Positions 15,623-56,200 of a stretch of 64,000 nucleotides of DNA are shown here, piece by piece. Position numbers and translations under genes: made by a program. Numbering within the stretch: position 1 is the first letter of the stretch; each line of letters starts with the position of its first letter. The notes below the pieces were generated by a model, which was not told where the DNA came from, ran no database searches, and saw nothing but the letters and a program-made list of their open reading frames with translations. Source of the DNA: Emiliania huxleyi CCMP1516 (Eukaryota); the NCBI RefSeq assembly GCF_000372725.1, contig NW_005201493.1, positions 138,830 to 202,829 on the forward strand. The letters are read 5' to 3'.

Positions 15623-17081
15623 ATGGCCGTGGCTCTTCTTCTCGCGCCGCCGCTCACCGCCTGCTACACGCCGCCCGGGCTGCTCGAGGGCCTTGTCGCG
15701 CAGAAGCGCAGAGAGGTGGAGAGGCTGCGGCGGATGCCCGAGGCGCGGGAGGACGGTTCGTGGGCCTTGCGGCTCGGCTACCCCACCTCTGACACGTCTT
15801 TCGCGCTGACGCGCGCGATCGGCTGGAAGCGCGAGCGGCCCGCCGTGCTGGCCGACCTCAAGCGGATGTCGCCCGGCGCCAAGCTCGGGCAGACGGACGT
15901 GGTCTGCGAGGTTCTCGATGCCGCCATCGCGATAGACGACGCGATCGACGCCAACCTGGCCGGCGCGCTGGTCGCGATCGACCGGACGAGCTACGGCGGC
16001 AGCGCCGAGGACCTGATCGCGGCGCGCCGGCGTGCCGACGAGGCTGCGCGCAAGGGGCTACCGACGCTGCCTCTCGTAGCCAAGGACTTGGTCATCGACC
16101 CGCTGCAGGTATGCACACATGCACATGCACATGACACATGCACATGACACATGTGCATGTAGGAAGGTGAAGAACAGCCAGGCTCGGACTGGACACCAGC
16201 GTGGTATGGGTGGACGCGGGACAGATGACGACGACACGCTCGAGCGACACACAGACACACACAGGCTCTCACACGCAGGTTGCCCGCGCCGCCTCCCTCG
16301 GCGCCGACGCCGTGCTCCTCGTCGCCGGCGCGTGCGTGGACGACTTTTCGCTGCTGCTCGACACGTGCACGCTGCTCGGCGTCGAGGCTCTGGTCGAGGT
16401 TCACACGCCCGAGGAGGTCGAGCTCGCCGGCAGAGCGCGGCGCGGCGCGCCATTTCTTTTTCAGCGCGTTTCTTTTTTACAGGTGCTCGCCGGCAGAGCG
16501 CGGCGCGGCGCGCCATTTCTTTTTCAGCGCGTTTCTTGTTTACAGGTCGAGCTCGCCGGCAGAGTGCGGCGCGGCCCGCCATTTCTCGTTCAGCGTTGTT
16601 TCTTTTTCCAGGTCGAGCTCGCGGCGGAGTGCGGCGCGGGCCTCTTCTTGGTGACGGAGCGCGACCGCGCCACCGGCCGCGTGCAGCGAGGACAGGCGCT
16701 CTCCTCCCCTCTCCTCTCCGCTCTCTCTCTCCTCTCTCCTCCTCTCCTCTCCGCTTTGTCCTCCCTCCTCCCTCCTCCCTCCTCCCTCCTCCCTCCTTCC
16801 CTCCTCCCTCCTCCCTCCTGCTCCTTCCTCCCTCCTCCCTCCTCCCTCCTCCCTCCTGCTCCTTCCTCCCTCCTCCTCCTGCTCCCTCCTCCCTCCTCCC
16901 TCCCCCCTCCTCCGCACCTCTACTCGTCACCGGCCGCGTGCAGCGAGGGCAGGCGCGGCGGATGGCGCCGCTGCTGCCGCCCGACGCGATCAGCCTCGCC
17001 ACGGGAGGCGTTGCCAGCATCGACCAGGCACCGTGCGCGTGCGCACACACATGCACACACACACACACACACATGCACTTG

Positions 17082-17116
<35 letters not shown>

Positions 17117-17117
17117 A

Positions 17118-17212
<95 letters not shown>

Positions 17213-17436
17213 GCACGCGGCCTTGCACCCTCAATGCCGCGCCAGCGCCTGCCGTTGGACGCGGAAGTCGCGAGGGCTGCCCGGCCCTTTCCCCACCGCC
17301 TCGTCCACGTCCATGTCCACGTCCGTTTGTACCTTGCCTCACCTTTCCCTCCCCCAGGTTCGGGAGCTGCACGCCGCGGGCTACGACGGAGTGGTCCTCG
17401 GCCGCTCGTACCCAGGCCCCCCCTTGCCCCGCCACC

Positions 17437-17507
<71 letters not shown>

Positions 17508-17755
17508 GTGCGTGCGTGCGTGCGTGCGTGTGTGTGGAGACATCTACCTGACCTCCCCTTCCCTTGCCCTCGCCAGGCGCCTCTGGCAGGAGGCTGGTCG
17601 AGGAGGTGCGGGCAGAGGAGCCGCGCCTCCGCCTGGTCGAGCCGATCACGGTCCGCGAGCCCGGAGACCCGCTCGAGCCGCTCGTCGAGGAGGAGGCGGA
17701 GGCGGGCGGCGGAGGGCGGGCGGGCGGCGGGGAGGGCCCCGTGTTTGACGTGTAG
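15623..17755 (+). CDS. Indole-3-glycerol-phosphate synthase (TrpC)-like protein, multi-exon, possibly plastid-targeted
   Basis: LADLKRMSPG, YGGSAEDL, VAKDLVIDPLQ|VARAASLGADAVLL, LVEVHTPEE motifs; introns at ~16109-16278, 16417-16611, ~16696-16952, ~17029-17358, ~17416-17576. Confidence 0.8.
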
Positions 17756-18136
17756 CGACGTGAGGGCGCGGGGGAGGGGGCCAGGGCCCGGCTGAGGTCT
17801 CGTGAGTCGTGTTCACACTGTTTCAGCGGAGAGCGGAGACCGGCCGTCTCCCTCTTTCTCTCTGCGCGAAATATCTACGCGTAGAGCCGTGTTTCCAATG
17901 CTTGGACAGTCCACACATGACAGGCACGGGTCACGGCCGAGCCCAGAGGCCGCCGCGCGCGCGCTAAGACACATGTCATGGCGTTTGGCGGTGGCCGGTG
18001 GAGGGCGATCCATGTTTCCCCCTCTCACATAGATTCTGATCATGATTCTGACTCACAAGAGGCTGACATGTGGGGTACTAATCTGACGGTCGACTGATCT
18101 AGCGCTCCTTGCACGTGCACTTCTCCCGGCGCAACC

Positions 18137-18901
18137 TCACAGGATCTCGCTGAACGACTGCCGCTTGTTTTTGACCGGCAAGTGCGTGCTGCGCGGCGTG
18201 GCCGCCACGGCGTCGGGCAAGATGGGAGCGACCACCTTGGATTGGACGAGCGAGCCGCGAAGCGAGGTGCGAAACACCGACTGTCGGACCGAGTTGTCGA
18301 TGCGCCGCGTCGGGCTGCCGGCGCGCTGCTTGACAACCCACTCTTTAGGGGGCGGTGGGAGCTTGGGCTGCTGCGGCTTTGGGCGCGGCGTCTGGCTCTC
18401 GAGGTCGCCGGATGAGGCCGTCGACTGGAAGGCGTAGCTCTTGCTGTTCCAGCGGAGCCTGAACTTTGGCGGCTGGCCGTCCGAGCGCTCGGACCGCGCG
18501 TCGATCAGCCCTATGCCGCGCGCAGCTGCACTCGAGGAGCCCTGGCGGTACCGCAAGGCAATAGCCAGCGCGAGCAAGGCGGCAGAGGCGGCAGCGAGGA
18601 CGTAGGCATGCTCGGTCGCGAAGCGCATCACCACGACATCCAGCTGGTCGTCGGCGAGTGTCCCGTTGGCGGCCACAAGAGGCGGCTCTACGGAGCTACT
18701 CGCCACGTACGGCTCGAGCGCAGCGAAGTGGCGGGTCTCCTCGGCGTCGGCACACCCGCCAAGACGGTCGGACCAATATTCGAGCCACTCCAAGGGGTTG
18801 ATGTACTCCAGCGGGTGGTAGAGCGGGTCCAAAAGGTTGGTGCAGACTCGCGACGATGCGGCGGAGGGAGAGGCTGCGGCGGAGGAGGAGGAGACTGACA
18901 T
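18137..18901 (-). CDS. Hypothetical single-pass membrane protein
   Basis: 254-aa ATG ORF with a hydrophobic segment YVLAAASAALLALAIAL. Confidence 0.5.
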   Translation of the reverse strand: MSVSSSSAAASPSAASSRVCTNLLDPLYHPLEYINPLEWLEYWSDRLGGCADAEETRHFAALEPYVASSSVEPPLVAANGTLADDQLDVVVMRFATEHAYVLAAASAALLALAIALRYRQGSSSAAARGIGLIDARSERSDGQPPKFRLRWNSKSYAFQSTASSGDLESQTPRPKPQQPKLPPPPKEWVVKQRAGSPTRRIDNSVRQSVFRTSLRGSLVQSKVVAPILPDAVAATPRSTHLPVKNKRQSFSEIL

Positions 18902-19144
18902 GGACGTAGGTGGGTCGGATTGGCCGTGCGAGTTTGGCGAGGCGCCCTCCTTGCCTCGTGCAATATGGGATTTTTTCTTTTCTCAATGGCTCTTTATACG
19001 TACATTCCCGTAGGAGGACTCTGCTGACAGGGTTTGCGATGAGGAGCGACCCGAAGGGTTTCTCGGAGGTTAGTGCACCACTAACCGCCGAAGCACAAGC
19101 ACTTGGAGCAAGAGAACTACGTACGTACGACCTGGATCGACGAC

Positions 19145-20167: not shown

Positions 20168-21513
20168 TCGGTCGGCGGCCGCCGCCTGTTGGTCCGATGG
20201 CTTTCGGACCGATGAGGGTTGCGACTCCTCTCCCTCGCTGTGATTCTGTGGCAGGTTCGGTGTTGCAGATGCCAGGGCCGAATGAGGGCGGAATCGGGGT
20301 CACGGTCGCCTACGCCGGTGGCGATGCCGCTCCCTTTGCGGCTGGGGCGAATCTGCCACGTGCTCGGGATCAAGCCGGGCCCGAACCTTGTGCTCACCGC
20401 TCGCATGGCGGCATCGGCGGTGCACGTCGACCCGAGCGGCGGCCTGCTGCACCAGGTGGCCCGGCTCGAGCACCGCGTCTGCGAGTGGGGCCTCGGGGAG
20501 GCGCGAGGCGCGTTTCGCCCCGTCTGCGCGTGCGGCCGCGTCCCGTGTGGCTACGCGTCCCATCATTACTGCCGGTGGATCGCTCCAGAGGCGGTGGGCG
20601 GCCACTAGAAGGCGACTCGTTAGCGAGTCGAGTGGCTCGCACATGCCGGAGGGGCTGTCGCGCGTCTTTGGAGGTAAGGTCGCACCGTCCACCATCATGT
20701 TACTTCGATACGCTTGATTCCGGCGCTTGTTTTTTGCGCGCTCTCTGACTCTCTGTACACAGTAACACACATAAACAGAAGCGTCCTCTCCTCTCTCGCG
20801 TCCACCCATAGCGCTTTGGTGTCCAGTCCGAGCCAGGCTGTTCTTCGCCACACAGTGTTCGCAGTGATGTCTGATCACGAGTGAACCGCACAAAATCTCG
20901 CTGCGGAGTTCTGAGGGCCGCCGGATTTTTTAAGACCTTTTAATAAATGAGGAGGTTTGGCGGGGCCGCCGCTGAAATTGTCGTTTAAGAGATTGCACAG
21001 GCACGGGGGCGGGGGACCGCGGTTTAAGAATTTTACAACAAAAAACTCTCGTCCCTCGCACGACACTGGGCACGGGACTGGCGCGCACTGGCACTAACAC
21101 ATTCATAATATTACTACATATAGCATAAAAGGAGCAAGTGTACGGGTAAAAGCTAAAACTCTTCGGCGGCCTCCGCAGCCACCTCAGCCACCGCCCCGGC
21201 GGCGTCCAAGGCCAGCTCGGTCACATCGACGGCATCTGAGAGAGCTCTCTGGTACGAAATGGGGGGTACGAAATGGAAAAGGAGCATTTCGCGAGAAGTC
21301 CCCGCCCACATTGCAGTCTTTCGGAAATTCGAAACTTTCGTCAATTCGTCTATTCTGTAATTTGAAATTCGAGAACGATCAACAGAGGAGAGCTCAATTA
21401 TAGAGGTGACATCGCGAATCCGGATCGTGAAACGAAGGAGCGTCCTTCGGGCTTCGCTAACCCCTAACGCTGAACGCGCGATCAGATGGCAGGTCTACAT
21501 GCTCCGAAAGGGG

Positions 21514-23852
21514 TCAGCTGCTGGAGGGCGGCGGCGCGTCAAAGAGCGCGTTGCCCATCGCGCGCAGGCCGTAGACGGAGCGCAGCTCCGTGTCGAAGTA
21601 CGGCACCTGCGTGACGTCGACCGCGCAGCGGGCCGCGAGGTCGTCGAGCTCGGCGAGGCACTGCCGCTGCCCGTTGGCGAGCCTCGCGACGTACCCGTCC
21701 GCCACGTCGGTCGCGATGAGCCGGTTGACGACGCCGCGCCGCACCGCGATCCCCTCCCGCCTCAGCTCGAGCAGCAGCCGCTCCGCCTCGTTGAGCGAGA
21801 GGGCCGTCGCGATGGTGACGATACAAAACTCGGTCGTCTCCGGGTCGTGCAGCAGCGCCTGCAGCGCCTGCATCTGGGCCTGGAACTCCTTGAGCTTCGT
21901 CACCGCCGTCGGCTCGTCGGGCGCGTCTGCGGGTGCGCCTCCGCCTCCACCGCCGCCGCCGCCGCCGAACACCTTGCCCAGCAACTGCTGCGCACCGCCC
22001 AGCATGTTGGCGGCGCCGTCGAAGCGCGAGCGGAGGACGAGGAGGCGGGTGATGAAGCGGTCGAGGAAGTCGGGGAAGGTGAGCAGCCGCAGCGTGTGGC
22101 CGGTCGGCGCCGTGTCGATGACGACGCGGTCGAAGTGGATGCCGTAGGCGTCTCGCTGCGCGAGGGCGACAATCTTTGAGAGGGCGATGAGCTCGTCGAC
22201 ACCGGGCGGCACCGCGTCGAAGATGTCCGCGAAGTCGGAGAGGCCGAGACCCTGTGCCGAGGCGGCGCCTCCCTCGTCTGATGAGACGCCGCCCACCAGC
22301 CGCTTGAACTCGGCGACGGCGTCGTCCACCTTGACCTCGCACGCGTACAGCGACGCGCCCGCCACGCCCTCCACGCGCACAACCTCGCCCGACGAGAGGT
22401 CCGTCTCGAGCGCATCGCCGAGAGAGTGCGCGGGGTCCGTCGAGACGAGCAGCGTCGAGTGGCCGTCCGTCGCGAACTGCACCGCCAGCGAAGCCGAGGT
22501 CGTGGTCTTGCCGACGCCGCCCTTGCCGCCGACGAGGACGAACCGGTCCTTTTGGTCGGCCAGCAAGTCCTCCCATGCGTCGGCGTTTGTGCCGCGGAAG
22601 GCCTGCGAGGCGACGTACTGCAGCGGGAAGACGCCCCGCATCTCGAGGTCGAAGAAGGGCAGCCGCGAAAGCGCGAGCTCGCCGAGCGGGGAAGAGCCGT
22701 CCAGCCGCTTGAGCTCGCGCCCCTGCTCGGCCCGGATGCGGTCCAAGTAATCTCGGGTGATCTCGAGTGATCTCGAGTGATCTCGGGTGATCTCGGGTGA
22801 TCTAGGGAGATCTCCTGCTCGGCCCGGATGCGGTCCAAGTATGCGGTGGAAGAGGCACCGTCCACGACCTGGTTGACGATCAAGTGCGAGACCGGCACGC
22901 CTTGGTCGGCGAGGGCAGACAGCAGCCGCGCGCACTCAGCGACGGCGAGGCGCGACGGGATGCCGACGACGACGAAGTCGGTCACGTCTTCGTCGGTGAG
23001 CAGCTCGCGCAGCGAGGCGACGCGGTCTCGCCAGCGCTGGAGGCGCGCGACGGCGGCCTCGATCTTGTCGGTGGGGTCGTTGCCTCCCAGCACGCCCTTG
23101 AGCAAGCCGATGGCGGCGAGGAGGCGCGCCTTGAGCGCCACGACCTTGCCGAGAAGGCTGTCGAGGAACTCTGGAAAGGCGAGCAGCCGCAGCGTGTGGC
23201 CGGTGGGCGCCGTGTCGAAGACGACGCGCTCAAAGCCTGTGAGCGAGGCTGCGCCGTCGCTGTCTGGCTCGGCGCCGCGCACGACCGCCAGCGTCTCAGC
23301 GAGGGCAAGCAGCTCGTCGAGGCCGGGCGGCACGTTGTCGAGGATGTCGGCAAACTCGTCGAGACCGAGCTGGCCGAGCACCTCTTCTGCGAGTCCGCCC
23401 AGCCCGAGGTCGGCAGCGCGGAAGCCGCTGACTGCGGCGCGGAAGCGGTCGACCGCGTCGGCCGTCTCGACCTCCATCGCCTGCAGGTTCTCGCACCCGG
23501 CCACGCCGACGGGCGAGCCGCCAGACACGTCCTGCATCAGCGCATCCGAGAGAGAGTGCGCCGGGTCGGTCGAGACGATGAGCGTGGAGAGGCCCGTGTC
23601 GGCGAGCCGCACTGCGATGGCGCTCGAGCTCGACGTCTTGCCGACGCCACCCTTTCCACCGACCAGGATGAGCCGCTGCGCAGCGCCCTGCCCCGTGCCG
23701 GGCTCCAGCAGCGAGGCGAGAGGCGTCGCGGCCGGAGCCACGCAGCGCACCGCGGCGGCACGGTGCTGAGGCAGCGGCGAGGTCCAGCGCGTCGGCAGCG
23801 TCCGGTGCGACGCAAGCAGCGTGAAGACACTCAACTGGACCGATTGGAGCAT
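21514..23852 (-). CDS. Tandem two-domain ArsA/GET3-family ATPase with N-terminal targeting extension; intron 22723-22814
   Basis: Two sets of GGKGGVGKT, STDPAHSL, PPG.DE and DTAPTGHTLRLL motifs; removing the 92-bp intron joins the two long ORFs. Confidence 0.9.
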
Positions 23853-27011: not shown

Positions 27012-27251
27012 CAGCCCGCGCCGGCGCGTGGAGTGTGCTGAAGTCCCTCGCCTGAGTGTGCTACGCGTGCGTGCGCCCACCCCGATGTGTGTAAATTTTG
27101 CCCCGTGAAGGAAGAAGCAAGAACGGAAGAGGAGACGCGTATGTACACGCCCCTCGTGATACGACGCCGGGAGATGGCACGGCAATGGCACTTGCAACGG
27201 CTGATGCGCGCGGCGCTCTCTCTCTAGCTCTCTCTCTGTCAGATCTGGCAT

Positions 27252-28493: not shown

Positions 28494-28803
28494 CATCTGC
28501 TGTCTCGTCTGACTCCGCGGGGGCGCTCTCCGGCTCTCGGGTGGTGTCGAAAGGGGGACTCGGAGCGAGCGTCGTGGAGGTCAGGACGAACGCAGAACTT
28601 TCTCTCTTACTCTCACACCTCAACCCCCGCATGCCAACCAAGAGAGAGTACACCGCGCCACGAATCACCCAGCCCACGTCTCCGGTGCTGCGAGTGTTTT
28701 GCGTGAGAGCGCGCGCGCGGCTGCGGATATATCGCGCCAAGCCGTCCGTTGGGAACGGCGCGCGTAGCGGGCTGCAGCATCAGGGGCGAGCAAGCACCCT
28801 TTG

Positions 28804-31800
28804 CTAGCTCCCGCCGCCTCTGCCGCCGCCGCCCCCCTTGCCGCCGCCCTTGCCCTTGCCACCGCCGCCCTTGCCGCCTCCTCCCCCGCCCTTGCCGCCG
28901 CCGCCGCCGCCGCCCTTGCCGCCGTTGCGTCCTCCTCCACCGTCGCCCCGCGTCACGTTCAGCCCGGGCACGCCCTTGAGGCCCATCTTGCCCACCGTCT
29001 TCGCCTACAACAAAGGATCCGGCGTCCCACACACACACCAACTCGCATCGCCGTCTTGCCCACCGTCTTCGCCTCCAGGGCGGGGGGCGTCGACAGGCCA
29101 AGCACAACCGAGGCGTACTCGTTTGCGCGCTCGACCAGCTCCTCCTTGGACCAGCCGAGCCGCTTGAGGTACGAGTTGTAGAAGCCGAGCCACGCCTGGG
29201 GAGATATGGGGAGATGAGGGGGAGATGCGGGGAGATGTGGGAGATGCGGCGAGAGGGAGATGTGGGGAGATGGGGGAGGTGTGGGGAGATGTGGGGAGGG
29301 ATGTGGGGAGATGGGCCGAGGTCCGCCGAGGTCCGCCGAGGTCCGCCGAGGTCCGCCGAGGTCCGCCGAGGTCCGCCGAGGTCCGCCGAGGTTCGCGAGT
29401 TCGCTGAGTGAGATTCGCTGAGATTCGCCTGGTAGCCGCAGCCGAGCGTGACGGACGGCAGCTTGGAGAAGGCGTCGGCGATGGAGGGCATCATCGAGGC
29501 GGCGACGCCCGCGGCGAGCGGCGGCCGCTTCTTGAGGGGCAGGTCGCGCAGGTCGTGGAGGAAGAAGGACTCGAAGTCGGCGAGCAGGAGGTAGCCGCCG
29601 CCGTTCTTGCCCGCGCGCGCCGTCCGGCCGAGGCGGTGGATGTACTGCGCCCTGTCAGACGGCATGCCCACCTGGGCGACACGTGGAGAGGGTCCGGGGA
29701 CGGGGGCGTGGCGCGGGCGTGTGTGGAGGGCGTGTGTGGATGGCGTGTGTGGCGGGCGTGTGTGGTGGGCGTGTCGTGGAGCGTGGTGTCCCGTCTGTCG
29801 GATGATCCGGGGAGATGTGGGAGATGTGNNNNNNNNNNNNNNNNNNNNNNNNNNNNNNNNNNNNNNNNNNNNNNNNNNNNNNNNNNNNNNNNNNNNNNNN
29901 NNNNNNNNNNNNNNNNNNNNNNNNNNNNGTGAGCCATCGCTGCTCCCCCTCTCTTGCCTTGATACTCCCGGCCTCCGTTGACAGGGTGCCACACAGGCAA
30001 CTCAACCTGGGGCTACTGCGCCGACGACTTTTCTTCCTGGTATCATGAGGTCGCCGTGCAACACACTGAGAACCTCGACGAGTCGGACACAATCGAGGGG
30101 TGGACCTTGACGTGTATGTGGGGGGCGGCGTTTGCCCCGGCGGTCCGGTCAGCGTCTTCAACTTCGATGCGTGGCCTGCGCCGCCGGAGGCGACATACGA
30201 CTACGTTGGCCCCGTGCGCTTCGAGGTTACCCCGGCCGCATAGACCCTTTAGGCGGGTATCGGTCGTAGTCTCCGGCCGGATAGGTGCCGTGTGACAGCC
30301 CGCGCCGGCGCGTGGAGTGTGCTGAAGTCCCTCGCCTGAGTGTGCTACGCGTGCGTGCGCCCACCCCGATGTGTGTAAATTTTGCCCCGTGAAGGAAGAA
30401 GCAAGAACGGAAGAGGAGACGCGTATGTACACGCCCCTCGTGATACGACGCCGGGAGATGGCACGGCAATGGCACTTGCAACGGCTGATGCGCGCGGCGC
30501 TCTCTCTCTAGCTCTCTCTCTGTCAGATCTCAGCTGGCAATATATTGCTGTCTCGTCTGACTCCGCGGGGGCGCTCTCCGGCTCTCGGGTGGTGTCGAAA
30601 GGGGGACTCGGAGCGAGCGTCGTGGAGGTCAGGACGAACGCAGAACTTTCTCTCTTACTCTCACACCTCAACCCCCGCATGCCAACCAAGAGAGAGTACA
30701 CCGCGCCACGAATCACCCAGCCCACGTCTCCGGTGCTGCGAGTGTTTTGCGTGAGAGCGCGCGCGCGGCTGCGGATATATCGCGCCAAGCCGTCCGTTGG
30801 GAACGGCGCGCGTAGCGGGCTGCAGCATCAGGGGCGAGCAAGCACCCTTTGCTAGCTCCCGCCGCCTCTGCCGCCGCCGCCCCCCTTGCCGCCGCCCTTG
30901 CCCTTGCCACCGCCGCCCTTGCCGCCTCCTCCCCCGCCCTTGCCGCCGCCGCCGCCGCCGCCCTTGCCGCCGTTGCGTCCTCCTCCACCGTCGCCCCGCG
31001 TCACGTTCAGCCCGGGCACGCCCTTGAGGCCCATCTTGCCCACCGTCTTCGCCTACAACAAAGGATCCGGCGTCCCACACACACACCAACTCGCATCGCC
31101 GTCTTGCCCACCGTCTTCGCCTCCAGGGCGGGGGGCGTCGACAGGCCAAGCACAACCGAGGCGTACTCGTTTGCGCGCTCGACCAGCTCCTCCTTGGACC
31201 AGCCGAGCCGCTTGAGGTACGAGTTGTAGAAGCCGAGCCACGCCTGGGGAGGTATGGGAAGGGGAAGATGCGGGGAGATGTGGAGATGCGGNNNNNNNNN
31301 NNNNNNNNNNNNNNNNNNNNNNNNNNNNNNNNNNNNNNNNNNNNNNNNNNNNNNNNNNNNNNNNNNNNNNNNNNNNNNNNNNNNNNNNNNNCGAAAAGGA
31401 GCACGGTGCAAGATCTGTCGAGCTCCTTCCAAAAAGAGGGGGCGTGACAATTTATCCTGTAACACAAATGAGGCACCACTGAGTTCACATATACTTCGCC
31501 CTACGGCCGCCAACGTATAGCGGAGTTGCTGCTCCAAGCTCGGGTCTGAGGTTCGAACTTCCAGGAAATTCCCCCCACTGTTACGGCCATTTCCCTCCAC
31601 GTCCAGACAACGTACAAGAAACTTTTCGCCAGCGGGGGGAGGGAGGGGAATGGAGAGGTGTGGAAAGGAGAGAGAGGGAGGTGTGGGGAGGAGAGAGAGG
31701 GGGATGTGGAAGGGAGGAGGTGTGGAGAGGGGGGAGGCGTGGAGGGAGCGAGGTGGGTGGAGGAGAGACCGGTGTTTGGAAGAGAGGGAGGCGTGAGCGA

Positions 31801-34800
31801 GGGAGGTGTGAGCAAGGGAGGCGTGAGCGAGGGAGGTATGAGCGAGGGAGGTATGAGCGAGGAAGGTGTGAGGGGAAGACGACGGCGACCTTGTAGCCCG
31901 GCTCGGCCGTTGCCTCTTGGACGAGCGCAAACAGCTCGGGCGCCTGCCAGGGGAGATATGGGGAGGTATGGGGAGGTATGGGGAGATATGGGGAGATATG
32001 GGGAGATGTGGGGAGATGTGGGGAGATGTGGGGAGATATGGGCAGATGCGGGGAGATATGGGGAGATATGGGGAGATGTGGGGAGATGTGGGGAGATGTG
32101 GGGAGATGCGGGGAGATATGGGGAGATATGGGGAGATATGGGGAGATGTGGGGAGATGCGGGGAGATATGGGGAGATGCGGGAAGATATGGGGAGATATG
32201 GGGAGATATGGGGAGATGCGGGGAGATATGGGGAGATGCGGGGAGATGCGGGGAGATATGCACCTGCCCGCCGAGCGACGTCACGGTGGAGGCTTGCTCG
32301 ACCTGCGGACATGTCTCGGACATGTCGCGGACATGTCGTGGACGTGTCGTGGACATGTCGTGGACGTGTCGCGGACGTGTCGTGGACATGTCGTGGACGT
32401 GTCGTGGGCGCTTGCCCGACCTGCGCGTTTGTGTTTGTCTCCTCGCCGACCGTGTCGACGAGCTTGGTGCGGTCTGGGCCTCGCGTCGCGATCTGCGCCA
32501 CGGAGAGCGGGTGGTCTCGGGTGATCTCGGGTGATCTCGGGTGACCTCGGGTGATCTCGGGTGATCTCGGGTGATCTCGGGTGATCTCGGGTGATCTCGG
32601 GTGATCTCGGGTGATCTCGGGTGATCTCGGGCGATCTCGGGCGATCTCGGGTGATCTCGGGTGACCTCGGGTGATCTCGGGTGATCTCGGGTGATCTCGG
32701 GTGACCTCGGGTGATCTCGGGTGACCTCGGGTGATCTCGGGTGACCTCGGGTGATCTCGGGTGACCTCGGGTGATCTCGCGTGATCTCGGGTGATCTCGG
32801 GTGACCTCGGGTGATCTCGGGTGCTCTCGGGTACTCTCGGGTCATTCTCCGAAGTTCAGATCGCCTGCGCCACGGATAGGACGTCCTTGGGCAGCGTCGC
32901 GGAGAAGAGCAGCGTCATCCGCCGCTGCGACGAGAGGCGGCGGGGGGGCGGAGGTGGGTGGAGAGGAGGCGGGGAGAGGAGGCGGGGAGAGGAGGCGGCG
33001 AGAGGAGGCGGGGAGAGGAGGCGGGGAGAGGAGGCGGGGAGAGGAGGCGGGGAGAGGAGGCGGGGAGAGGAGGCGGGGAGAGGCGGCGGGGACAAGAGGG
33101 AGCCAGAGCGGTGAGGAGAGCAGCAGCGGCGGTGTGATGGCGGCGCGCGCCTCCCGCGACGGCGCCAGCGCCTGGAGAATCTTTTGGATGTCGGGCCGGA
33201 AGCCCATTTCGAGCAGCTGGTCCGCCTGCGCGTGAGAGAGAGACTCGAAGATGAGCGGCGATCTCTCGGCTGCCTCTCGGCGATCTCTCGGCTGCCTCTC
33301 GGCTGCCTCTCGGCTGCCTCTCGGCTGCCTCTCGGCTGCCTCTCGGCTGCCTCTCGGCTGCCTCTCGGCTGCCTCTCGGCTGCCTCTCGGCTGCCTCTCG
33401 GCTGCCTCTCGGCTGCCTCTCGGCTGCCTCTCGGCTGCCTCTCGGCTCTATCTCTCGAGCAGCTCGTCTTCCTCGTCGAAGATGAGCGCCATCAGCCCGG
33501 CGCACGACTGGTCGAGAAATAGCCGAGGTATGGCCGAGGCACAGCCGAGACATAGCACCGAGGTGTGGCCGAGGTACAGCCGAGGTGTGGCCGAGGTGTG
33601 GCCGAGGTATGGCCGAGGTATGGCCGAGGTATGGCCGAGGTATGGCCGAGGTATGGCCGAGGTATGGCCGAGGTATGGCCGAGGTACAGCCGAGGTACAG
33701 CCGAGGTACAGCTGAGGTACAGCCGAGGTACAGCCGAGGTACAGCCGAGGTACAGCCGAGGTAGCGGCCTGGTCGGCGCCGTAGTTGTACAGCAGGTCGT
33801 TGAGCCGGCCGGGCGTGGCGACGAGCAGCGAGGGCGGCTTGGTCTGGAGAAGGGGGAGAGGCGGCGGCGGTGAGGAGGAGGTTGGAAGAGGCGGCAAGGT
33901 GAGGAGGGAAGAGGTTGGGAGAGGCGGCGGCGGTGAGGAGAGGGAGAAGCAGCGGCGAGGGGAGAGAGGGAGGCAGCAGAGGTGAGCAGGAGAGAAAGAG
34001 AGAGAGAGAGGGAGGCAGCAGCGGCGAGAGAGGGGTGCGGCAGCGGCGAGGAGAGAGGAGGTGTGCGTCAGCGGCGAGGAACGGGGAGAGGCAGCAGCGG
34101 CGAGGAGAGAGGTGTGCGGCAGCGGCGAGCGGGTGCGCGGCTCGCGCCTGCAGCATCCGGACGTCGGACTTGATATTTGTGCCTCCGACGACGACGGCGG
34201 TGGTGAGGGCGGGCTTGTGGAAGGTGATGAGCTGCTCCGCCTCGTCGCGGATCTGCGACGCCAGCTCGCGCGTCGGAGAGATGGCGAGCGCACGCACGCC
34301 GCCGCCGGTGGCGGGCTTCAGCAGCACTTCGATCGTCGGGAGCAGAAAGGCGATGGTCTTTCCGGTGCCGGTCTTGGCCTTGGCGATGACGTCGAAGCCG
34401 GAGAGGATGACGGGCAGCGTCTGCGCCTGCACCACCGACATCACCTCGTAGCACAGCACCTCGGCGATCGCCTTCTTGGTCAGCGGGTGGATGTCGAGCG
34501 ACGCAAACGAGTTGCCGGTCAGGTGGGCGCGCGTCGTGCTCGAGGTGCGCGAGTTTGGGTTGGCCTTGGCGGCTGCCGGCCCGGCCGCCGGCGGAGCGGG
34601 GAGTGCCGAGATGGTGTCTCCGTTTGCCTCCGCGGGAGCGGCTCCGTTGGCGCCGCCGTGGCCGTGGCCGTTGCCGCCGCCGCTGGCGCCGCCATTGGCG
34701 CCGCCATTGGCGCCGCCATTGGCGCCGCCACCCCTGTTGCGGCCACGGCCGCCGCGCGGGCGGCGACGAGGGCCGCCTTCGCCCTTGCCGCCTCCGCCGC

Positions 34801-34813
34801 CGCCGCTGTCCAT
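28804..34813 (-). CDS. DEAD-box RNA helicase (Mss116/RH25-31-like) with Gly-rich termini, many minisatellite introns, split by gaps
   Basis: AKTGTGKT, SPTRELA, ATPGRL, DE|ADQLLEMGF, LFSAT, QYIHRLGRTARAG and YQ|AWLGFYNS motifs. Confidence 0.9.
29929..31290 (+). repeat. Gap-flanked near-identical duplicate of 26643-27246 + 28498-29210 (probably the other haplotype)
   Basis: Sequence identity by inspection; bounded by 100-N gaps on both sides. Confidence 0.85.
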
Positions 34814-39802: not shown

Positions 39803-39837
<35 letters not shown>

Positions 39838-42040
39838 GCAGCGCCGACAGGCTGGCTGTCGGCCGGGGCGGCGGAGGTTGGCAGAGGAGTCGAGGACTCG
39901 TTGCGCGTGCCGTTGCCGCCGCCGCGCTTCCCGCCGCGTTTTCCGCCGCGTTTTCCCTGACGGCGGCGAGCGCGGCGCGCCTGTGAGAAGGGCGCCCCGC
40001 GCCTGTCACGCCGGGCAGCTCTCGGGGCATCTCTCGGGGCAGCTCTCGGGGCATCTCGGGGCATCTCGGGGCATCTCGGGGCATCTCGGGGCATCTCGCG
40101 CGGCATCTCGGGCGCACGATGGCGGTGGGACGCGGGGGCGGGGATGTGTGTGCGTGAGTGGGGGGCGGGAGATGCCGGGGGGGGGGGGGGGGGGGCAAGG
40201 CCACTCATTTTGGGCACCTCCGCCGAGTCCTCTCCAGCCCCCCCCGGGTCGTCCCCCTCCCCCCAATTGGGAACAACCCCCCCCCCCAAAGAGGGGGAGG
40301 AGGCGGCAGCGGCCGGCGGCACCTCGGCCCGCGCCGCCTCCTGCGCCGGCGCCGCCGCAGCGGCCGGAGGCGTCTCCGCCACCGGCGCCGCTCCGGCAGG
40401 CGCCGCTTTGGCAGGCGCCGCGCCCTCCGCCGCCGCGTCGTCCGGCGGAAGCGCCTCCTCGTCCGCCGCAACGTTCGCGTTTTTGCCCGCCCGGCCGCCC
40501 CCCTTGCCGCGCCCGCCGCCCTTGCCGCGCCCTCCCCCTCTCCCTCCTCCGCCCCCCGCTCCGCCCTCCTTGCCGCCGCCCTCTCCGGCCGCCTCCTGCG
40601 AGGAAGACACCGCCTCTGCCGGCGGCGGCGGCGAGGCCAGCGGCGGCGGCGGCGAGGCCAGCGGCGGCGGCGGCGAGGCCAGCGCCGCCGCCGCCGGCGG
40701 CGGCGACGGCGGCGGCGGTGTGCTGTCGGCGGGAACCGTGGCCGCCGTTGCGATCGTTGCGGCGGGGGGAGGCGGCGGCGGGGTGCCCGCCGGCACCGGC
40801 ACCGCCACGCGAAGCTGCTGGCCGGCCGAAACGCCGGCAGGGACTCTGATCTGGAGCTGCCCTCCGAAGGGCGAGTTGATGACCTGCGTGGGTGAAGGCG
40901 GCGACGTGAGGGCGGGAAGACGGTACTGTGCGGCGTACTCAGAGCACGTGGCGTGAGTGCAACGGAGAGGAAGACAGTGAGTACGGCCGAATACGTGTGA
41001 GTACAGCGGAGTACGTGTCCTCTCGAGCGCTGGTTGGGGATACACGAACACGTCTTCCGCTTCTAGGAGTTGGTGACGATGGCTTGGCCCGCGGTCACGC
41101 CGGGCGGGATGGTGACGAGGAGATCTCGCGTTGTGGCCGCGGCGGCCGCGGGCGGCGGCGGCGACAACGAGGGCGAGGGCGAGGGCGAGGGCGAGGGTGG
41201 GGGCAAGGGTGAGGGCGAGGGCGAGGGGGAAGGCGAGGGGGAGGGCGAGGGCGGGGGCGGGGGCGGGACTGGCGGCGGCGGGGAAGCGACCACCGCTGCC
41301 GTCGCTTCCGCTGTCGCCACCGCCGGCACCGCCCCAGCCGTCGCCACCACGGGCTCCCCCGCCGCCACCGCCCCCGTTGCCGCCACCGGCCCCACTTCCG
41401 CGGCAGCAGATGCCGCCACCGCCGCCACCGCCACCGGCCCCGCCGTCACCGGCTCGGAGGTGGCGACCGCGGCGGCGGGCACCGACGCGGCGGGCACCGA
41501 CGCGGCGGTCGCCGACACCGCAACAGCCGAGGCGCAGCCGGGCGCGGGACTGCTCCGGATTGTCCACACGTTCCCGTCCGCCCACTTGATGGCGCTGCCG
41601 TTCCAGCTGCCGGTGAGCGCGGCGGGGCCGCCCTTGGCCGAGAAGTTCGCCTCGATCTCCTTGCCAGTCACGAGCGCGCGGACCGCCCAGGCTGCACCGC
41701 TCGTCCCGTCGGAACCCGTGATGTTTGCTGCGCCGCCCGCACCGGCCTCCGCAATGGCGCGAGGGCAGCCAGGATGCCTCGGGTCGTCAAAGAGGCCAAA
41801 GGGGGCCTCGTGCCGCTTCGCCAGCGCCTTCTTCAGCTCCGCCTGCAGCACCGACTTTGTGAGCTTGCCGTCCGGCGCGAGCGCGTCAAACTGGTCCAAG
41901 ACCGCCTGCAGGACGTGCTGCGGCAGGTGGGGCACCGACGACGTCTCCTTCGGCGGCCCCTTGCTCGACTCCTTGCTGCTCTTCCCGCCGCTCTTGTGGA
42001 CGCCGGACGAAACGGCGGCCAGGCAGAGGGCGAGGAGCAT
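39564..42040 (-). CDS. Secreted Pro/Ala/Gly-rich protein, spliced
   Basis: Signal-like MLLALCLAAVSSG; DPRHPGC...NFSAKGGP...IKWADGNVW globular module; VTIPPGVTAGQ/VPAGVSAGQ repeats; introns 40884-41077 and ~39985-40215. Confidence 0.6.
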
Positions 42041-44133: not shown

Positions 44134-44136
44134 CTG

Positions 44137-48375: not shown

Positions 48376-48629
48376 GCGAGGGGCAGCGCCTCACGCGCCA
48401 CGCCCTGCTCGCTCGCCGTTTGGTCGAGCTTGGCACAGTGAGAGCAGTGTGCACGACACTCAGCGCAGCGCGCGCCGTGTACAGGGAGCGCGATCCTCCG
48501 ACACCGTTGATGTCCCGGGTACGTATAAGTACGTCAGTATTCTCGCATTTTCTCCTTTCCTCACTGCAGGTTTTTGGCATCACAAACCGCGACACAAATC
48601 CGTACTGGCTCGAGGTGGCGAGCAGGGCC

Positions 48630-49480
48630 TCCCTCTCACGCCCAACTCAAGTACTCTGCGCCGACGTTGGTCGCCTGCAGCGGCACATCCAGCACGCCAA
48701 ACTCGCCCGCCTCGATACAGATGCTCAACCCGAACCCGAGCGACGTGATCGCCAGCGACGGCGGCAGCTGCTGCGAGTTGTCCACCGCCGGCAGCCGCGC
48801 CGTTGGCGGCGTGGAGCGGAGTCCGAGCCACAGCGGGCTCGCCTGTTCATGGGACGTGTCGTGGACGCGTCATGGGCGTGTGCTAGGTGCCAACTGCTCG
48901 GAGTACAACGCTGAGAACAAAGACCTGTGCTCCCCATCTAGGCCTCCAGATCTGGGGAGGTATGGGGAGATATGGGGAGAAGTTGTTCCGCATCTGGCTG
49001 CACTCGCCCGCAGCGTGAGCGGCGCGGAGAGGATGGAGAAGTCGATCTCCTGCGTCGTTGTGACCCAACCGATTAGGAATACATCACTCAATGAGGTAGA
49101 GAAGGCAGATCTCCGGCGTCGCCGTGACCGCCACTGAGGTAGAGAAGAACCAATTCCCATTAGGATGACGACCCTGCGTCATCATCGTGAGCTATGGGGA
49201 GATATGGGGAGATCGATGTGTGACGAACCTGCGTCATCATCGTGACCCAGTGCGGCGTCGCGCGACGGCCGCTCTCGTCTGGCGGCCCGACACCCCTCTA
49301 ACGATGGAACCGAATCTTGAAGTCTCATGCACAGGGCCGCTCTCAGGGCCGCTCTCGTCTGGCGGCCCGACACCCCACCTCGAGCCGCGCCCCTCGCGAC
49401 GTCGCCCTGAAGTCGCGCGGCGCTCGCATGGCCGCGTGCGCGTGCTCAGCCCCCCCCGGCCGCAGGTCGATTCCGCATGG
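48630..49480 (-). CDS. Possible spliced hypothetical gene or fragment
   Basis: Protein-like segments (FLIGWVTTTQEIDFSILSAPL; ICIEAGEFGVLDVPLQATNVGAEYLSWA) separated by minisatellite and direct-repeat intron-like blocks. Confidence 0.3.
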
Positions 49481-50960: not shown

Positions 50961-51344
50961 AGCGGCGGCGGGTGCTGCTTCGCCATGGGACGACGAGGCG
51001 GAGGAGGAGGCAGAGGTGCAGGGGAGCGATAGCGGGTTGCGGGGGATGGAGGTTGAGGCCGGCGCCGCAGGAAGGGTGGCGGCGGAGGTGCAGCGTAGTG
51101 ACACTACTCTAGAGGTGCGAGGCAGCGACCCATTCCCGACGTTTTGGTAATTCTACGTCAGTAGACAGCAGCCAGGTCAAGTTCGGATCTCGGCGGGATC
51201 CCGCGCGGTCCCCCGCCGCCGCGCCCGGCCGCGAGGGGAAAGCCGACCGACGGACCGAGCCGCCCCCCCGCGAGCCCACTGAGCACTGCGGTTGTCCTGA
51301 GCCCGGACGGAGGCTCTGAGCCGAGCCGGGGCAGCTTAGGGCGC

Positions 51345-51961
51345 ACTTTGGCGGAGTGTGCAGTTAGTAACCTCACATCCAGGGCCGGGGGGAGAGCTTA
51401 ACTAAGAAGCGCACAAGCGGGCCGGATGATCGGCATCGGGCTACGGGCTAGAGAGCCCTGACCCCTAAGGGGGGGTGCGCGTTCGCAGGGAAAGGGCCGT
51501 AAAATAAACACGAGTCTCCGAGGGTTGGTTCTGCGCTTTGGTTGGGTGTCCCCTAGCGGCGGAACGCCCCCTCTACTCGGAGCTAGTAAACACCAGACAC
51601 GAGCATGACGTATACTCTCACCCGACATCGCCACTCAGGGCCCCTCCGCCCGATCTCCCCACCCCCCCATCCGAAAGGGCTCCCCTCTCCTCCCGGTCCT
51701 CCCTCCTGTTCGCTTTCCGATGGTCAGGCTGCGGAGCCCGCCTTCCCCTCTTATACTTCTTCGACCGCGGCTTCGCCGCCGTCTCGCCTTCTCTGTCTGA
51801 TCCCGTTGACTCCGCGGGTGGCGATCCCGTGTCCGACTCCCCGGGCGAGGGCGGCGACGTTGGGTTATATCGCCTCCCCTCCCCGGGGGGTCGGACCGGC
51901 TTTCCCTGGTCGACGAATCGCGCTCGCATCCGCGGCCTCTCTATCGTCTTTCGGCTCGCCC

Positions 51962-52025
<64 letters not shown>

Positions 52026-53040
52026 ATCCTCCGCCGGTTCCTCCCGTCGCCTCTTCTTTGTTCGAATGTTTTTCAATCCATCCTTCACGAAGCCCTCCCA
52101 TGTAGCTAGCGTTCTTGGCGAATGTCTCGAAATGGCCAGCAGGCGCTGTCTGCTCGCGGTCTGTGCGGGCCGCTCGTCCTCCCCGCCCTTCTTTCGTCCT
52201 CCCGTCCCTCCCCTCCACCATGGCCTTCTCGGCACTTCTTTCTCCATCCGCCTCGCCCTGCCTTTTCGTATCGTGCCGTTCGCCCTCCATTCGGTGACCT
52301 CCATGGCTGTCCGCCCCCCTTTGGGTGGCGCTCTCGATACGGTTGCGTCAACCTCGACGTCGCTGTCGCCCTCCCCGTCCCCACCGGCGTCCGTGCCTCG
52401 GTTCGCGTCATCGGTAGCGTCTCCGTTGTTCCCTCGTGCCCCGCCGTCGCCCTCTCTGCTCGGGCCGTTAGCGATTTCGCCCCTCCTGCGTGTCGCCCCT
52501 CCGTCCCCTCCCCTTTCTTCGTCGTCATCGTCGCTGTCGCGAAAGCCCTCCGGTCCCTCGATTCCCTCGCCTATCCCCTCCGCTGCGTCGTCCCAGTTTA
52601 TATCCTCATCCTCTGCGCACGTCGCGTTGGCTTCCTCTCTCCCCCTTTCCTCCCTGCCCCTCTCGCTGTCTGGTGTTAATGGACCCCCTTCCTCTCCCTC
52701 GCCACCGTCACCGTCACCATCCCCGTCGCTCCCGCCCTCCATCCCCGCCGCCCTTTGTCTCACACTCGTCTCTGCCATGTCCGCCGTCGCCGCCGTCCTG
52801 TCTGCTGCGCTCTGTGCTCGTCTAACGCCTCCTGCTAGCTGGGGCACGCTCCCACGCGGCTGGGGGCCGCTCTCCAGCTCGATTAGGGCGTTTTTCGCGC
52901 GATTTTACGGAATTACGGATTGGAGGGGGGTGGCGGCACATAGGGGGAGGGCCACGGAGGGGGAGACGCGCATCTACGAATCAAGTTATTGGCACCGGAA
53001 GCGCTCGCGCCTCGCCGCCGGTCTGCGCCGGTCAGGCTCT
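51345..53040 (-). mobile_element. Repeat element with an acidic/Gly-rich ORF (51618-52847) and an internal (CA)n
   Basis: Middle part repeated at 1-492; terminal part repeated at 49878-49956, where it ends in (CTCCAAGTG)n on the minus strand. Confidence 0.5.
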
Positions 53041-53207
53041 TTATGATCGTATCAATGATAGACCGCTCCACGCTCGCTGACGCTGTCACACCTTTAGCGT
53101 TAAGGACAACCTGCCATCGGACATGCAAGTACGCACTAACCAGTACAACGACCGTAGAGTACGAGTAAGTCTACCTCCAACAGTGAGACGAGACTCGGCC
53201 CAACGCC

Positions 53208-56200
53208 TCACCACGTATGTCTCAACTGGCTCCCCACGCCGCCGCCCACCCCTTGCCCGGCGCCTTGGCTCCCTAGCACGCGCGCCTCCAGCAGCTCGAG
53301 GCGCTGCTCCCAGCCTGCCGCGCGCTGGTCGGCGGTCTGCTGCGGCCCGTGGTAGAAGCGCTCGTAGTCGATGTCTTTTGGCTCCCACTCGCAGCTGTCC
53401 CAGTCCCAACCGATGCCCGAGCGTCCAAAGAGGCGTTCGGCAAAGAGCGCAATGTAGCGCGTGTCCCACTGGCCCTGCCTTCCGAGCGGACTCTCGAGGT
53501 GATTGGAGGGCGGGAAGAAGAACCAGCCCGGCAGCTCTGGCGCGCAGGCGCACGGGAAGAGGAAGCAGCCATACCGCAGCACAAAGAGGGACGTCCACGC
53601 GAGGCTCGTCCCAAACTGCGCCCAGAAGAGGCACGGGCCGCCGTGGGGGAAGCAGATCGGCCAGCCGTCGAGGCAGTACGGATACGTCTGCCAGATGACC
53701 GCAAAGTAGATGTTGGAGACGGGCACCACCTAGGGAGTGTCTCGAAAGTGTCTCGGCAGTGTCTCGGAAGTGTCTCCGTCGGTGCTGGAGGCGGGGACCA
53801 CCCACGAGTACAGCGGCGTGTAGTAGACCTACACTCATGAATCCAGCACAGGCTAGGGCTAGGGCTAGGGCTAGGGTTAGGGTTAGGGTTGGGGTTAGGG
53901 TTAGGAAGGACCGACCGTGAATGATAAGGGCCACGAAAGCACCGAGAAGACAGCTGAGTCCACGCGTCTGTGTGTCCCGCATCTAGGGCCGTAGGCGTGG
54001 AACAGGATCATCAGGGCGAAAGTCCACAGCCCGATCCACCTAGGGAGGGTCTCGGAAGTGTCTCGGAAGGGCACTTCGCTGCCATGTAGTTGACCGATGG
54101 CACATTCCACGCAAGCTTGTCGGTCGTAGTCCATCGGCCGCCTCACCATGTGTGCGTGCTAGCCCTGCGGCGTGGAATGTGCTGGAGTCCCTCGCCCTGA
54201 GTGTGCTGCAGGGTGGGTGCCCCCCCCCCGCCCCCCCCCCCCCCGCCCGATGTCTACTCACACACCAGAACAGGATGTAGCGGTACGTCCGCCGCACGAC
54301 TTTGACGCGAGGCCCGTCCACATACCTAGTCGAGATGTGGCCGAGATGTGGCCGAGATGTGGCGAGATGCACGCCGGCGGCAACATAAGCCCGTCCACAC
54401 GCACTTTGTCGTCGCGAGGTACGTCGTCGGGTCGAGGCACGCCGCGCCGGCAATGAAGCCCATCCCGCGGCTGTCGGTCGCTTGGAGGAAGCCGAAGATG
54501 GCAAAGATGATTCCGAAGTCGGAGAGGGCGTTGCCTAGTACCACACCTCTGGAGGATCGAACCCAATGTGGGTGCAGGTCCGTGGGTGGTGCGGGATCAG
54601 TCGGAGGGGGCGTTGCCGGTGCTCTCGGCCGAGATGAGGATGGCGGTGACCAGCGCAAAGTACGAGATGACGACGACGGACAGCAGCTCGGTCAGGATGC
54701 CTAACCTCGGGTACTCTCGGGTACTCTCGGGTACTCTCGGGTACTCTCGGGTACTCTCGGGTACTCTCGGGTACTCTCGGGTACTCTCGGGTACTCTCGG
54801 GTACTCTCGGGTACTCTCGGGCAGCAGCTCGGTCAGGATGCCCCAAAAGACGACGGTGCAGTAGGCGTAGGTCTGGCCCTCGTACCGGCTCGCGAGCGAG
54901 CGCAGCAGGATGCGCAGGTCGGGCCCCTGCACGAGCGAGCTGACCTAACCTCGGCTAATCTCGGGTAATCTCGGGTCACCTCGCGCAACCTCGCGCCCCT
55001 GCACGAGCGAGCTCTGACCGGCTCGCTGTTGATCGCGTCGCCGATCGCCAGCGGGATCACGATGAGCTTGCCGACGATCCAGATGAAGCGCGGCAGGAAC
55101 GGCTCGTCGAGGTACCACCACTCGACCCAGGTGAGGGTGTGGGGCACCTCCGCCAAAAAGTTCTCCACCATCATGCACTCGAGGAGGAGGATCTCGAAGG
55201 CCACGAGGATGAGGCAAAAGATGACGGCGACCCACTGCAGCACCTGCGCGCCAAGACATCGCCGAGACATCGCCGAGATACCGCCGAGAGTCCGCCGAGA
55301 TGTGGCCGAGATGTGGCCAGTCCCACGTCCCACGTCGGGGGCGCGCATGCACGCGGGGCGTGGGCACTACACACAGAGGCGGCGGAGGCGGCGGCTGAGG
55401 CGGCGGCGGCTGAGGCGGCGGCGGCGGCGGCGGTGGCGACGGTGGCGGCGGCGGTGATGGCGGCGGTGGGGAATGGCGGCGGCGGTGGCGGCGACGCCTG
55501 CGCGCCGAGCAGGAAGTACCAGCACTGCTGCGTGCACGGCCACGAGCAGCGGCAGCCGAGCCAGGGGGCGAAGAAGGTGGCCTCCTCGGCCTGCGGCACG
55601 CCCGCCTGCGGCAGGCGGGGGGGCGCCCTTCTTCACTGAGGCAAGATGGAGCGGAGCGAAGGGAGGGAGGGCGGAGCGGAGTGGAGAGAGAGGAGCGGAG
55701 CGGAGTGGAGAGAGAGGAGCGGACCGGAGTGGAGCGGAGGAGAGGAGTGGAGCGGAGGAGAGGAGTGGAGTGGAGCGGAGGAGAGGAGTGGAGTGGAGCG
55801 GAGGAGAGGAGTGGAGCGCCGCCTGCGGCACGCTAAAGACGTTGACCGGCTTCGGCTCGTTGTCGCCGAGAGAGCCGTCGTCCTGCGGCACGGCCTGGTA
55901 CTGCACCTGGACCGACTGCCGGTACCCGAAGTCCTTGAGGTATGCGGAGATGGAGACCCACATCGCCCACATGAAGACGTTCTTCTGCTCCTTGATCTCA
56001 TAGCCGAGCTTCCCCAGCGCCGAGTCCTTGCCCTTTGCTTCGAGCTCGGCCACAAGACCCGTCGCCTCCTCGTTGAGAATCGCACAGGGCAAGATCTGGT
56101 TCGGCAGCGGCAGGTCGTATGGGTGAAATTCCATGGGCCCGGTGATCATGAGCACCTTTGGCTCGGCGGCAAACCTCGCCTGCCGAACGCTGGACTCTCG

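Follow-up and report, generated by a model that had tools for sequence, protein, structure and literature searches.

Exon-edge copies at intron ends in a 64-kb stretch of the Emiliania huxleyi genome suggest intron gain by staggered-break repair

How introns can arise without a transposon is an open question with few well-marked cases, and a stretch of the Emiliania huxleyi CCMP1516 genome (contig NW_005201493.1, positions 138,830 to 202,829) raises it in several genes at once. In this stretch of 64 kb, hereafter the window (coordinates counted from its first letter; G+C 65%, N = 948), one end of an intron is repeatedly a copy of the edge of a neighbouring exon. An earlier note, made from the letters alone, had listed ten such repeat pairs, and all ten are present, seven of them exactly and three with one mismatch. 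Our analysis indicates that the pattern is real and strong, apparently undescribed, and that it apparently works like the break-repair intron gain known from Daphnia. We put at roughly 0.55 the probability that many copy-bearing introns of E. huxleyi arose when a staggered break was repaired, or when a template switch to the same effect took place, with a piece of the gene duplicated around a repeat filler.

Gene models were built with our own spliced aligner and yielded a curated set of 29 introns, 17 of them supported by transcripts, six by homology and six by reading frame; all counts refer to the window and to homologous loci taken from metagenomes. The donor region of each intron was scored in register against its acceptor region, with a threshold of ≥10, and the null comprised 812 shuffled donor/acceptor pairs and 100,000 permutations, with the CAG|G consensus preserved. 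The threshold was reached by 13 of the 29 introns, compared with 0.07 expected (0.25% of the shuffled pairs), which bears out the claim that copies exceed chance and provides the mark of Daphnia-type gain, an exon-terminus direct repeat at the opposite intron end. The mean score was 10.2 and the permutation maximum 6.4 (p ~1e-5). Nine of the 17 transcript-supported introns passed, as did 3 of 16 that the earlier note had not named (binomial p = 9e-6), although these lie in genes that it had chosen; in three other genes, none of four introns reached a score of 10. Short repeats in a helicase gene had also been put forward: copies of 7 bp are indeed there, but lengths of 5–7 bp fall within the null (95th percentile, 7) and carry little weight because the consensus-preserving permutation yields them. 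They were rejected as evidence.

That the blocks are spliced introns is confirmed by RNA contigs that skip them and by transcript-derived proteins that fit the models. RNA contigs were aligned over 53100–56350, and the junctions of the IGPS-like, ArsA and helicase genes rest on proteins and reading frame. The aligned region holds a membrane-protein gene (EMIHUDRAFT_220171 region, 53211..56149, minus strand; 542 aa, nine introns), the last exon of which is 99% identical to protein EMIHUDRAFT_220171 of E. huxleyi CCMP1516; a search of its protein against Pfam gave no match. The nine-intron model reproduces the 542-aa transcript-derived protein P0011. Contigs from two RNA runs (X10 and X12) skip 79, 82, 141, 74, 254, 217 and 168 nt exactly at seven of the nine introns, and contigs from two DNA metagenome runs (X2 and X8) read through the introns unspliced. 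The public gene model P0002 skips or misreads several exons that flank copy-bearing introns, and introns of this kind explain annotation errors such as these.

All nine introns of this gene lie on the minus strand. Intron 4 (54701..54841; RNA skip of 141; score 22) begins with a 21-bp copy that gives a GC donor, continues as a perfect 10-mer array and ends in TAG; intron 5 (54535..54616; RNA skip of 82; score 16) takes its GC donor from an 18/19 copy. In intron 3 (54945..55018; RNA skip of 74; score 18) a copy of the next exon gives GT and the filler gives TAG. The copy proposed there is real, but the intron measures 74 and not 72 nt, because the copy carries a 2-nt insertion and spans 26–28 nt. 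Intron 1 (55606..55822) has a GC donor, a 12-bp straddling copy and an RNA joint skipping 217 nt in both X10 and X12. A repeat pair 55589/55821 had been proposed at this position; the repeat exists but does not bound the intron, since its first copy is exonic, RNA shows the 217-nt skip there, and the true pair is 55602–55613/55819–55830 (12 bp). Intron 2 (55244..55497) combines a GC donor, a 10-bp exon-end copy and an 11-mer array, and is spanned by an X12 record in eight pieces. Intron 6 (54326..54404; RNA skip of 79) retains a decayed 5′ copy (11 bp exact, score 6) beside an 11-mer array, and protein-supported intron 9 (53730..53801; score 11) a decayed next-exon copy of 16–21 nt that gives GT. 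Introns 7 (54040..54265; consistent with the transcript-derived protein) and 8 (53829..53996; GC donor, RNA skip of 168, telomere-type hexamer array at 53854–53905) have no copy. The copies of introns 5, 6 and 9 had been overlooked by the earlier note, as had those of helicase intron 3 and a putative intron at about 49173–49227, both described below.

Two further features of this gene were observed. At 55589–55613, next to the 12-bp copy that bounds the intron, 15 nt of exon are duplicated (VPQAG VPQA), and a duplication may also have added five codons. The 5′-copy introns at 54701 and 54945 (minus strand), two cases only, have GGTTAG as their last six bases; this permuted telomere unit is also the end of a vertebrate telomerase product. 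Homologs of the gene are single proteins or open reading frames of 561–567 aa on 18–24-kb contigs, which indirectly implies genes without introns if, as we assume, the gene caller was of a prokaryote type. A search of viral contigs with the homolog P0005 gave no match.

In the copy-bearing introns of the curated set, one of the splice sites comes from the copy, as had been proposed, and does so in exact register; the length of the copy is indeed variable (9–29 bp). Nine introns form a 5′-copy class, where the intron start is a copy of the next exon start and yields a GT, GC or GA donor; the upstream exon end is not AG in six of the nine, and the filler provides a TAG acceptor in six of the nine. 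Six introns form a 3′-copy class, where the intron end is a copy of the previous exon end and yields the acceptor, with CAG at both exon end and acceptor in 6/6. Some copies straddle the exon–intron junction. Splicing removes exactly one copy plus the filler in every case, and the protein is therefore unchanged. Some copies are perfect (21, 21 and 27 bp) and others decayed, a spread that events of differing age would produce. Donors are often GC or GA, as claimed (15 GC, 12 GT and 2 GA), but this is nothing special to these introns, because the counts match the published 56% GC and 4% GA (PMC4028052; this and the other sources are cited for their accessible parts). A special link between copies and GC or GA donors was rejected, such donors occurring in 9/13 copy-bearing and 8/16 copy-free introns.

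The other intron-rich gene encodes an Mss116-like DEAD-box helicase (28803..34813, minus strand, assigned by P0040 and Pfam), which has at least 11 introns and is split by assembly gaps. It fits the MMETSP transcript protein P0040 across eight introns and a homolog (P0052) across a ninth, and all nine modelled introns are in phase 0. P0040 switches to a Myb domain after residue 407 and is probably a chimeric transcript assembly. On the same strand, the last intron (29005..29072; 68 nt, GC donor, fitted with P0052) has no array and carries a 21-bp copy consisting of AG plus 19 nt of the next exon, at a position found in no homolog. Intron 5 (32493..32864), also at a unique position, has a GC donor, a 12-bp exon-end copy and 33 copies of a 10-mer; intron 6 (32303..32420; score 13) has a 16-bp straddling copy and an 11-mer array. 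Intron 3 (33226..33471; GA donor, score 10) opens at its 5′ end with a decayed 17-nt copy of the next exon and contains internally, besides an 11-mer array, 13 bp copied from the end of the previous exon; these two copies suggest formation in two rounds. Repeats in the remaining introns are short: 7 bp with an 11-mer array in intron 2 (33508..33768), 6 bp with a 10-mer array in intron 7 (31944..32263), and 7 bp with 10-mer arrays in the YQ|AW intron (29196..29428), the position of which is common to homolog locus L049. Introns 1 (33844..34147; score 4) and 4 (32925..33150; score 2) have no copy.

The 3′ end of the helicase gene has been assembled twice, at 28500–29197 and 30548–31245, without a mismatch over 698 bp; the two versions have the same exons and the same 68-nt intron and differ in the adjoining 10-mer array. 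A 21-bp pair at 31034/31102 is consequently not independent, lying as it does in the second assembled copy. Further identical or near-identical blocks stand beside N gaps at 26640–27247 and 29930–30530. Such gaps and the duplicated gene end, together with 5–7-bp cases that fall within the null, might suggest that the whole pattern is an assembly artefact or a chance match to the CAG|G consensus. We consider this barely conceivable. The permutation test kept that consensus, independent DNA metagenome contigs cross the introns, RNA skips them, and separately assembled relatives show the same pattern; an assembly artefact is largely refuted on these grounds and was rejected.

Long copies also occur in two unrelated genes. 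The IGPS-like gene (15623..17755, plus strand; weak match to Pfam PF00218, six homologs) has five introns, the fifth uncertain; spliced alignments recover introns 2–4 with 6/6 homologs, intron 1 with 4/6 and intron 5 with 1/6. In intron 3 (16696..16952, plus strand; GC donor, score 26), both splice sites come from a 29-bp straddling copy, composed of 25 nt from the exon end and 4 nt more, and the filler is pyrimidine-rich. Intron 2 (16417..16611, plus strand; score 21) is built of three tandem units of 63–66 bp, each a ~30-nt copy of the next exon start plus a pyrimidine tract, and its GT donor comes from the copy. A tandem two-domain ArsA/GET3 ATPase gene (21500..23852, minus strand; Pfam PF02374, E 4e-57) has one frame-based intron (22723..22814, minus strand; 92 nt, GA donor, 10-mer array, score 28), the last 27 nt of which copy the upstream exon end; the repeat claimed here is real, with its length corrected to 28 bp, and removal of the 92-nt block leaves a single open frame spanning both domains. 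A frame-based intron in a Pro/Ala-rich gene with no assigned family (40884..41077, minus strand; score 8) takes its GT from a 10/11 copy of the next exon start, and a putative intron in a poorly defined gene (49173..49227, minus strand) has an 18-bp exact exon-end copy and 10-mer filler. The surrounding stretch, 48600–49400 (minus strand), is poorly defined, either a gene or a pseudogene, and contains 10-mer fillers and internal repeats that have degenerated.

Are these introns recent gains, or older introns that were later remodelled? The DNA-level comparison comes from the helicase. An alignment scan returned 80 loci, of which 11 (30–33% identity) were left unaligned and 69 were spliced-aligned; three frameshifted loci were dropped, and 66 were mapped. 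Eleven E. huxleyi positions were compared, two of them from one border only (residues 236–307 lie in an assembly gap), and homolog introns predicted in low-complexity N- or C-terminal parts were ignored as unreliable. Seven of the 11 positions are absent from all 66 mapped loci. A quick tree placed E. huxleyi, C. tobinii, L046, L049/51, L054/55 and L076 in one clade (SH-like approximate likelihood ratio test, SH-aLRT, 100), and the four groups of metagenomic loci among these are likely haptophytes. The helicase is intronless in L004 and L005, which are 27- and 22-kb contigs encoding the C. tobinii protein, and in L008; L006, L007, L009, L010 and L011 look like transcripts and are for that reason uninformative on introns. 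The relatives in the clade have 10 distinct intron positions, none common to two of them, and L046 shares 0/3 with E. huxleyi. At positions that E. huxleyi lacks, L046 carries copies of 16 and 14 bp, both at introns with GC donors, and a decayed copy is present in L049. The fillers of L046 and L076 are the same 11-mer and 10-mer units as those of E. huxleyi helicase introns 6 and 7, and introns of L076 and L049 carry telomere-type hexamers.

Several observations weigh against gain by break repair. No clear copy is seen in 16 of the 29 introns, including helicase introns 1 and 4 at their unique positions. Four of the 11 helicase positions are shared (two with L076, one with L049 and one with an outgroup clade), and three positions are shared within the clade, where parallel gain at AG|G sites would lead one to expect 1.16 (P = 0.07). 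In L076, introns 2–4 contain internal junction copies 59–95 bp apart, and because one of these includes the first 8 bases of the intron itself, duplication must also strike existing borders. Outside the clade, a position common to L021/25/42/44 bears a perfect 22-bp copy in L031, and the 16-bp copy of helicase intron 6 stands at the position shared with L076. A copy is accordingly not always a birthmark, since the same duplication strikes existing intron borders. Introns may have been lost in lineages with small genomes, and homolog sampling is skewed, since genes without introns come out on top and transcripts are among the loci; at DNA level the comparison covers one gene, the helicase. Among the 15 joints listed out of 23, none from the two DNA metagenomes was a true joint, and no presence/absence allele of the membrane-gene introns was seen. 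Finally, of 51 repeat pairs of at least 11 bp, 11 enclose mostly array, and none of these is clearly intergenic (10 lie at curated introns and one at the putative intron), which random breaks do not predict; it may mean that the events are targeted to genes or splice-like sequence, or that arrays grow only within introns.

Two loci deserve mention in their own right. L076:740–1495 holds three consecutive introns with nested junction copies; their fillers are 10-mers and TTAGGG/CCCTAA repeats, and the locus clearly documents recurrent events at a single site. Outside the haptophyte clade, a 22-bp copy in L031 (1018–1130) and 11-bp copies in L021 and L025 bound the intron at an IQ|VG site, where E. 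huxleyi and L042/L044 have an intron as well; the site is possibly a hot spot.

One alternative is that the introns are older, that their copies stem from later border duplication with the original end lost or bypassed, and that the intronless relatives lost their introns. The internal copies of L076, the copy of L031 at a clade-shared site, the tandem array of border units in IGPS intron 2, the shared helicase positions and a sampling biased to intronless genes would all fit, and duplications of this kind, termed mirages, are known in amphioxus (PMC3087553). We nevertheless regard remodelling as an unlikely account of the set. In 13 introns the copy sits at the opposite end in exact splice register, where border duplication in an old intron would not be expected to place it; intron-bearing relatives share no position with one another; and the seven helicase positions are unique even against outgroups. 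The claim of a staggered-break origin is partly supported, by splicing, copies, variable length and mostly lineage-specific helicase positions, and weakened by duplications at existing borders.

A related alternative is abortive intron loss, in which repair templated by complementary DNA (cDNA) or RNA writes a few bases from across the spliced junction into an old intron before the template is switched back. It would account for the internal copies of helicase intron 3 and L076 intron 4, in which sequence from either side of the junction is present, events do concentrate at junctions, and reverse transcriptase is present in the genome. An intronless ancestral allele explains junction-spanning copies equally well, however, and the scenario requires old introns, yet most helicase positions are unique; it also leaves the filler unexplained. 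We judge it highly improbable.

The fillers were claimed often to be 10- and 11-mer arrays, which are common but absent from two of the listed introns (29005–29072 and 40884–41077). The E. huxleyi genome paper reportedly noted 10–11-bp intronic repeats. Paired RYCTCSS cores fall inside curated introns in 99 of 110 instances, although these introns make up 5,171 of 63,052 bases (8% of the window). Telomere-type hexamers fill one of the 29 window introns, which is copy-free, and three of the four L076 introns. All-against-all comparison of the 29 introns and the introns of 13 homolog loci gave matches only via simple repeats, and neither a template nor an enzyme for the filler was found in the window and homolog loci. 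Scans for the array pattern returned 0 viral stretches and three unrelated prokaryote stretches.

Could the introns instead descend from mobile elements, either decayed introners or retro-insertions, that made target duplications of variable length and later had their bodies overwritten as arrays grew? A splice site is co-opted from a duplication and the mRNA is unchanged, a geometry shared with introners (PMC9860276); Chrysochromulina has introners with 4-bp duplications; a reverse-transcriptase-bearing retrotransposon lies in the window, and repeat units recur between introns. Even so, this origin seems very unlikely. The view that the introns are not an introner family stands, as no group of alike introns exists in the window set: there is no end-to-end family, likeness is confined to simple repeats, and the array-free young introns (68 and 82 nt) resemble no other window intron. 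No terminal inverted repeat of ≥6 bp was found in window introns (longest inverted match, 5 bp), and no poly-A tail or shared template in the intron sequences; no link between the nearby retrotransposon and the introns was seen. On the scale of the window an introner family was rejected on these grounds and because copies of 9–29 bp are far longer and more variable than a family-constant 3–9 bp.

For gain at staggered breaks, we infer the following course. Repair of a staggered break, or a template switch, would duplicate a short piece of the gene and leave repeat filler between the copies. Judging from L076 and helicase intron 3, a new intron probably measures some 65–95 nt at birth and lengthens as its array expands and as further rounds of the same event strike the same junction. 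Reiterative synthesis at the break, which the earlier note proposed, would be one source of the filler, but the arrays may also grow later. Such insertions would survive often because phase-0 codons, GC-rich as they are, offer many half splice sites and this spliceosome accepts weak GC and GA donors. Telomerase-type addition would be a lead for the hexamer fillers only. A bolder version would see a transposon-free intron factory of haptophytes, directed at splice-like sequence of transcribed genes, in which a break or nick at AG|G duplicates 10–35 bp, an RNA-templated or telomerase-like activity writes the shared vocabulary of 10/11-mers and TTAGGG, and the same junction is struck again, making most introns of intron-rich haptophytes and having driven a spliceosome tolerant of GC and GA; we hold this to be decidedly unlikely.

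If break repair is at work, it offers a handle on intron origin. Because about half of the introns bear the mark, which is long and near-perfect, and because the alga is cultured and well sequenced, with many strains and close sister species, break-repair gain becomes datable and testable genome-wide with existing data. The copy-bearing introns also offer a reason for the GC-majority donors of E. huxleyi.

Elsewhere in the window introns are clumped, with at least 11 in the helicase, nine in the membrane-protein gene and one in the 2.2-kb ArsA frame, and none was seen in a glycosyltransferase-like gene (7575–9180) or in RCC1-, NHL- and ankyrin-repeat genes. A fragment at 13450–15250 (minus strand) resembles, by eye, enoyl reductase and ketoreductase (ER/KR) domains of polyketide synthases. 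The retrotransposon mentioned above, a non-long-terminal-repeat element (long interspersed nuclear element, LINE) at 60440–63963 (minus strand), has a reverse transcriptase motif (Pfam PF00078, E 2e-4, below the Pfam cut-off) and, by eye, an RNase-H-like C-terminus. LINE fragments at 1–490 and about 51480–52900 abut long (AC)n/(TG)n runs and may reflect microsatellite targeting.

Parts of this picture are familiar from known systems. E. huxleyi donors are 56–65% GC and 4% GA (PMC4028052), and repeat-rich introns are known in this alga (bioRxiv 283549). Introners, which occur in Chrysochromulina, likewise co-opt one or both splice sites from a target duplication and leave mRNA length unchanged (PMC9860276, PMC12130899); unlike the window introns, they form alike families with inverted repeats and constant duplications of 3–9 bp. 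The main texts of both papers do not mention huxleyi, and their supplements may list the species. Border duplications inside introns also characterise amphioxus mirage minisatellites and the proto-splice duplication model of Rogers (PMC3087553), which IGPS intron 2 and L076 resemble; tandem units across an existing border are found there but not in the 12 other high-scoring window introns, where most copies are single, at the far intron end, in exact register and separated by unrelated filler. Interstitial telomeric insertions place TTAGGG arrays at repair sites, with target duplication in 10/155 loci (Table 1 of PMC2246262), and haptophyte telomeres are TTAGGG (PMC3622300); those insertions are not tied to intron formation, and the hexamer filler of the window is confined to its single copy-free intron, with more in L076 and L049. 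A general survey of direct repeats likewise argues that intron-border repeats mark insertion at breaks, but its long repeats are mostly 70–86% alike with no register required (PMC11782384), and those described here are near-perfect and in register. In the literature searched, from which subscription papers were outside the scope, we found no description of exon-edge copies in haptophyte introns; PMC2784329, PMC13508280 and bioRxiv 2024.05.26.595999, which were consulted as well, yielded nothing pertinent. The closest parallel is Daphnia, where neointrons attributed to staggered breaks (also Li et al. 2009, as cited in PMC3488318) have terminal repeats of 4–12 bp, internal repeats in 55/90 and frequent parallel gains (PMC4202315). 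The E. huxleyi introns are like them in bearing an exon-terminus repeat at the opposite intron end, in repeated rounds with internal repeats, in parallel gains at one site and in lacking a mobile family. They differ in that copies reach 21–29 bp (37 in L076), occur in ~45% of all introns examined rather than in polymorphic introns, polymorphism being a Daphnia feature, and enclose a shared vocabulary of 10/11-mer or telomere-type filler, with donors that are often GC or GA. GC donors, GA donors, repeat-rich introns and Daphnia gain at staggered breaks with 4–12-bp repeats were thus already known; new here are the longer copies, the high share of introns that bear them, the common filler vocabulary on which different lineages draw, and the recurrence of events at a single junction.

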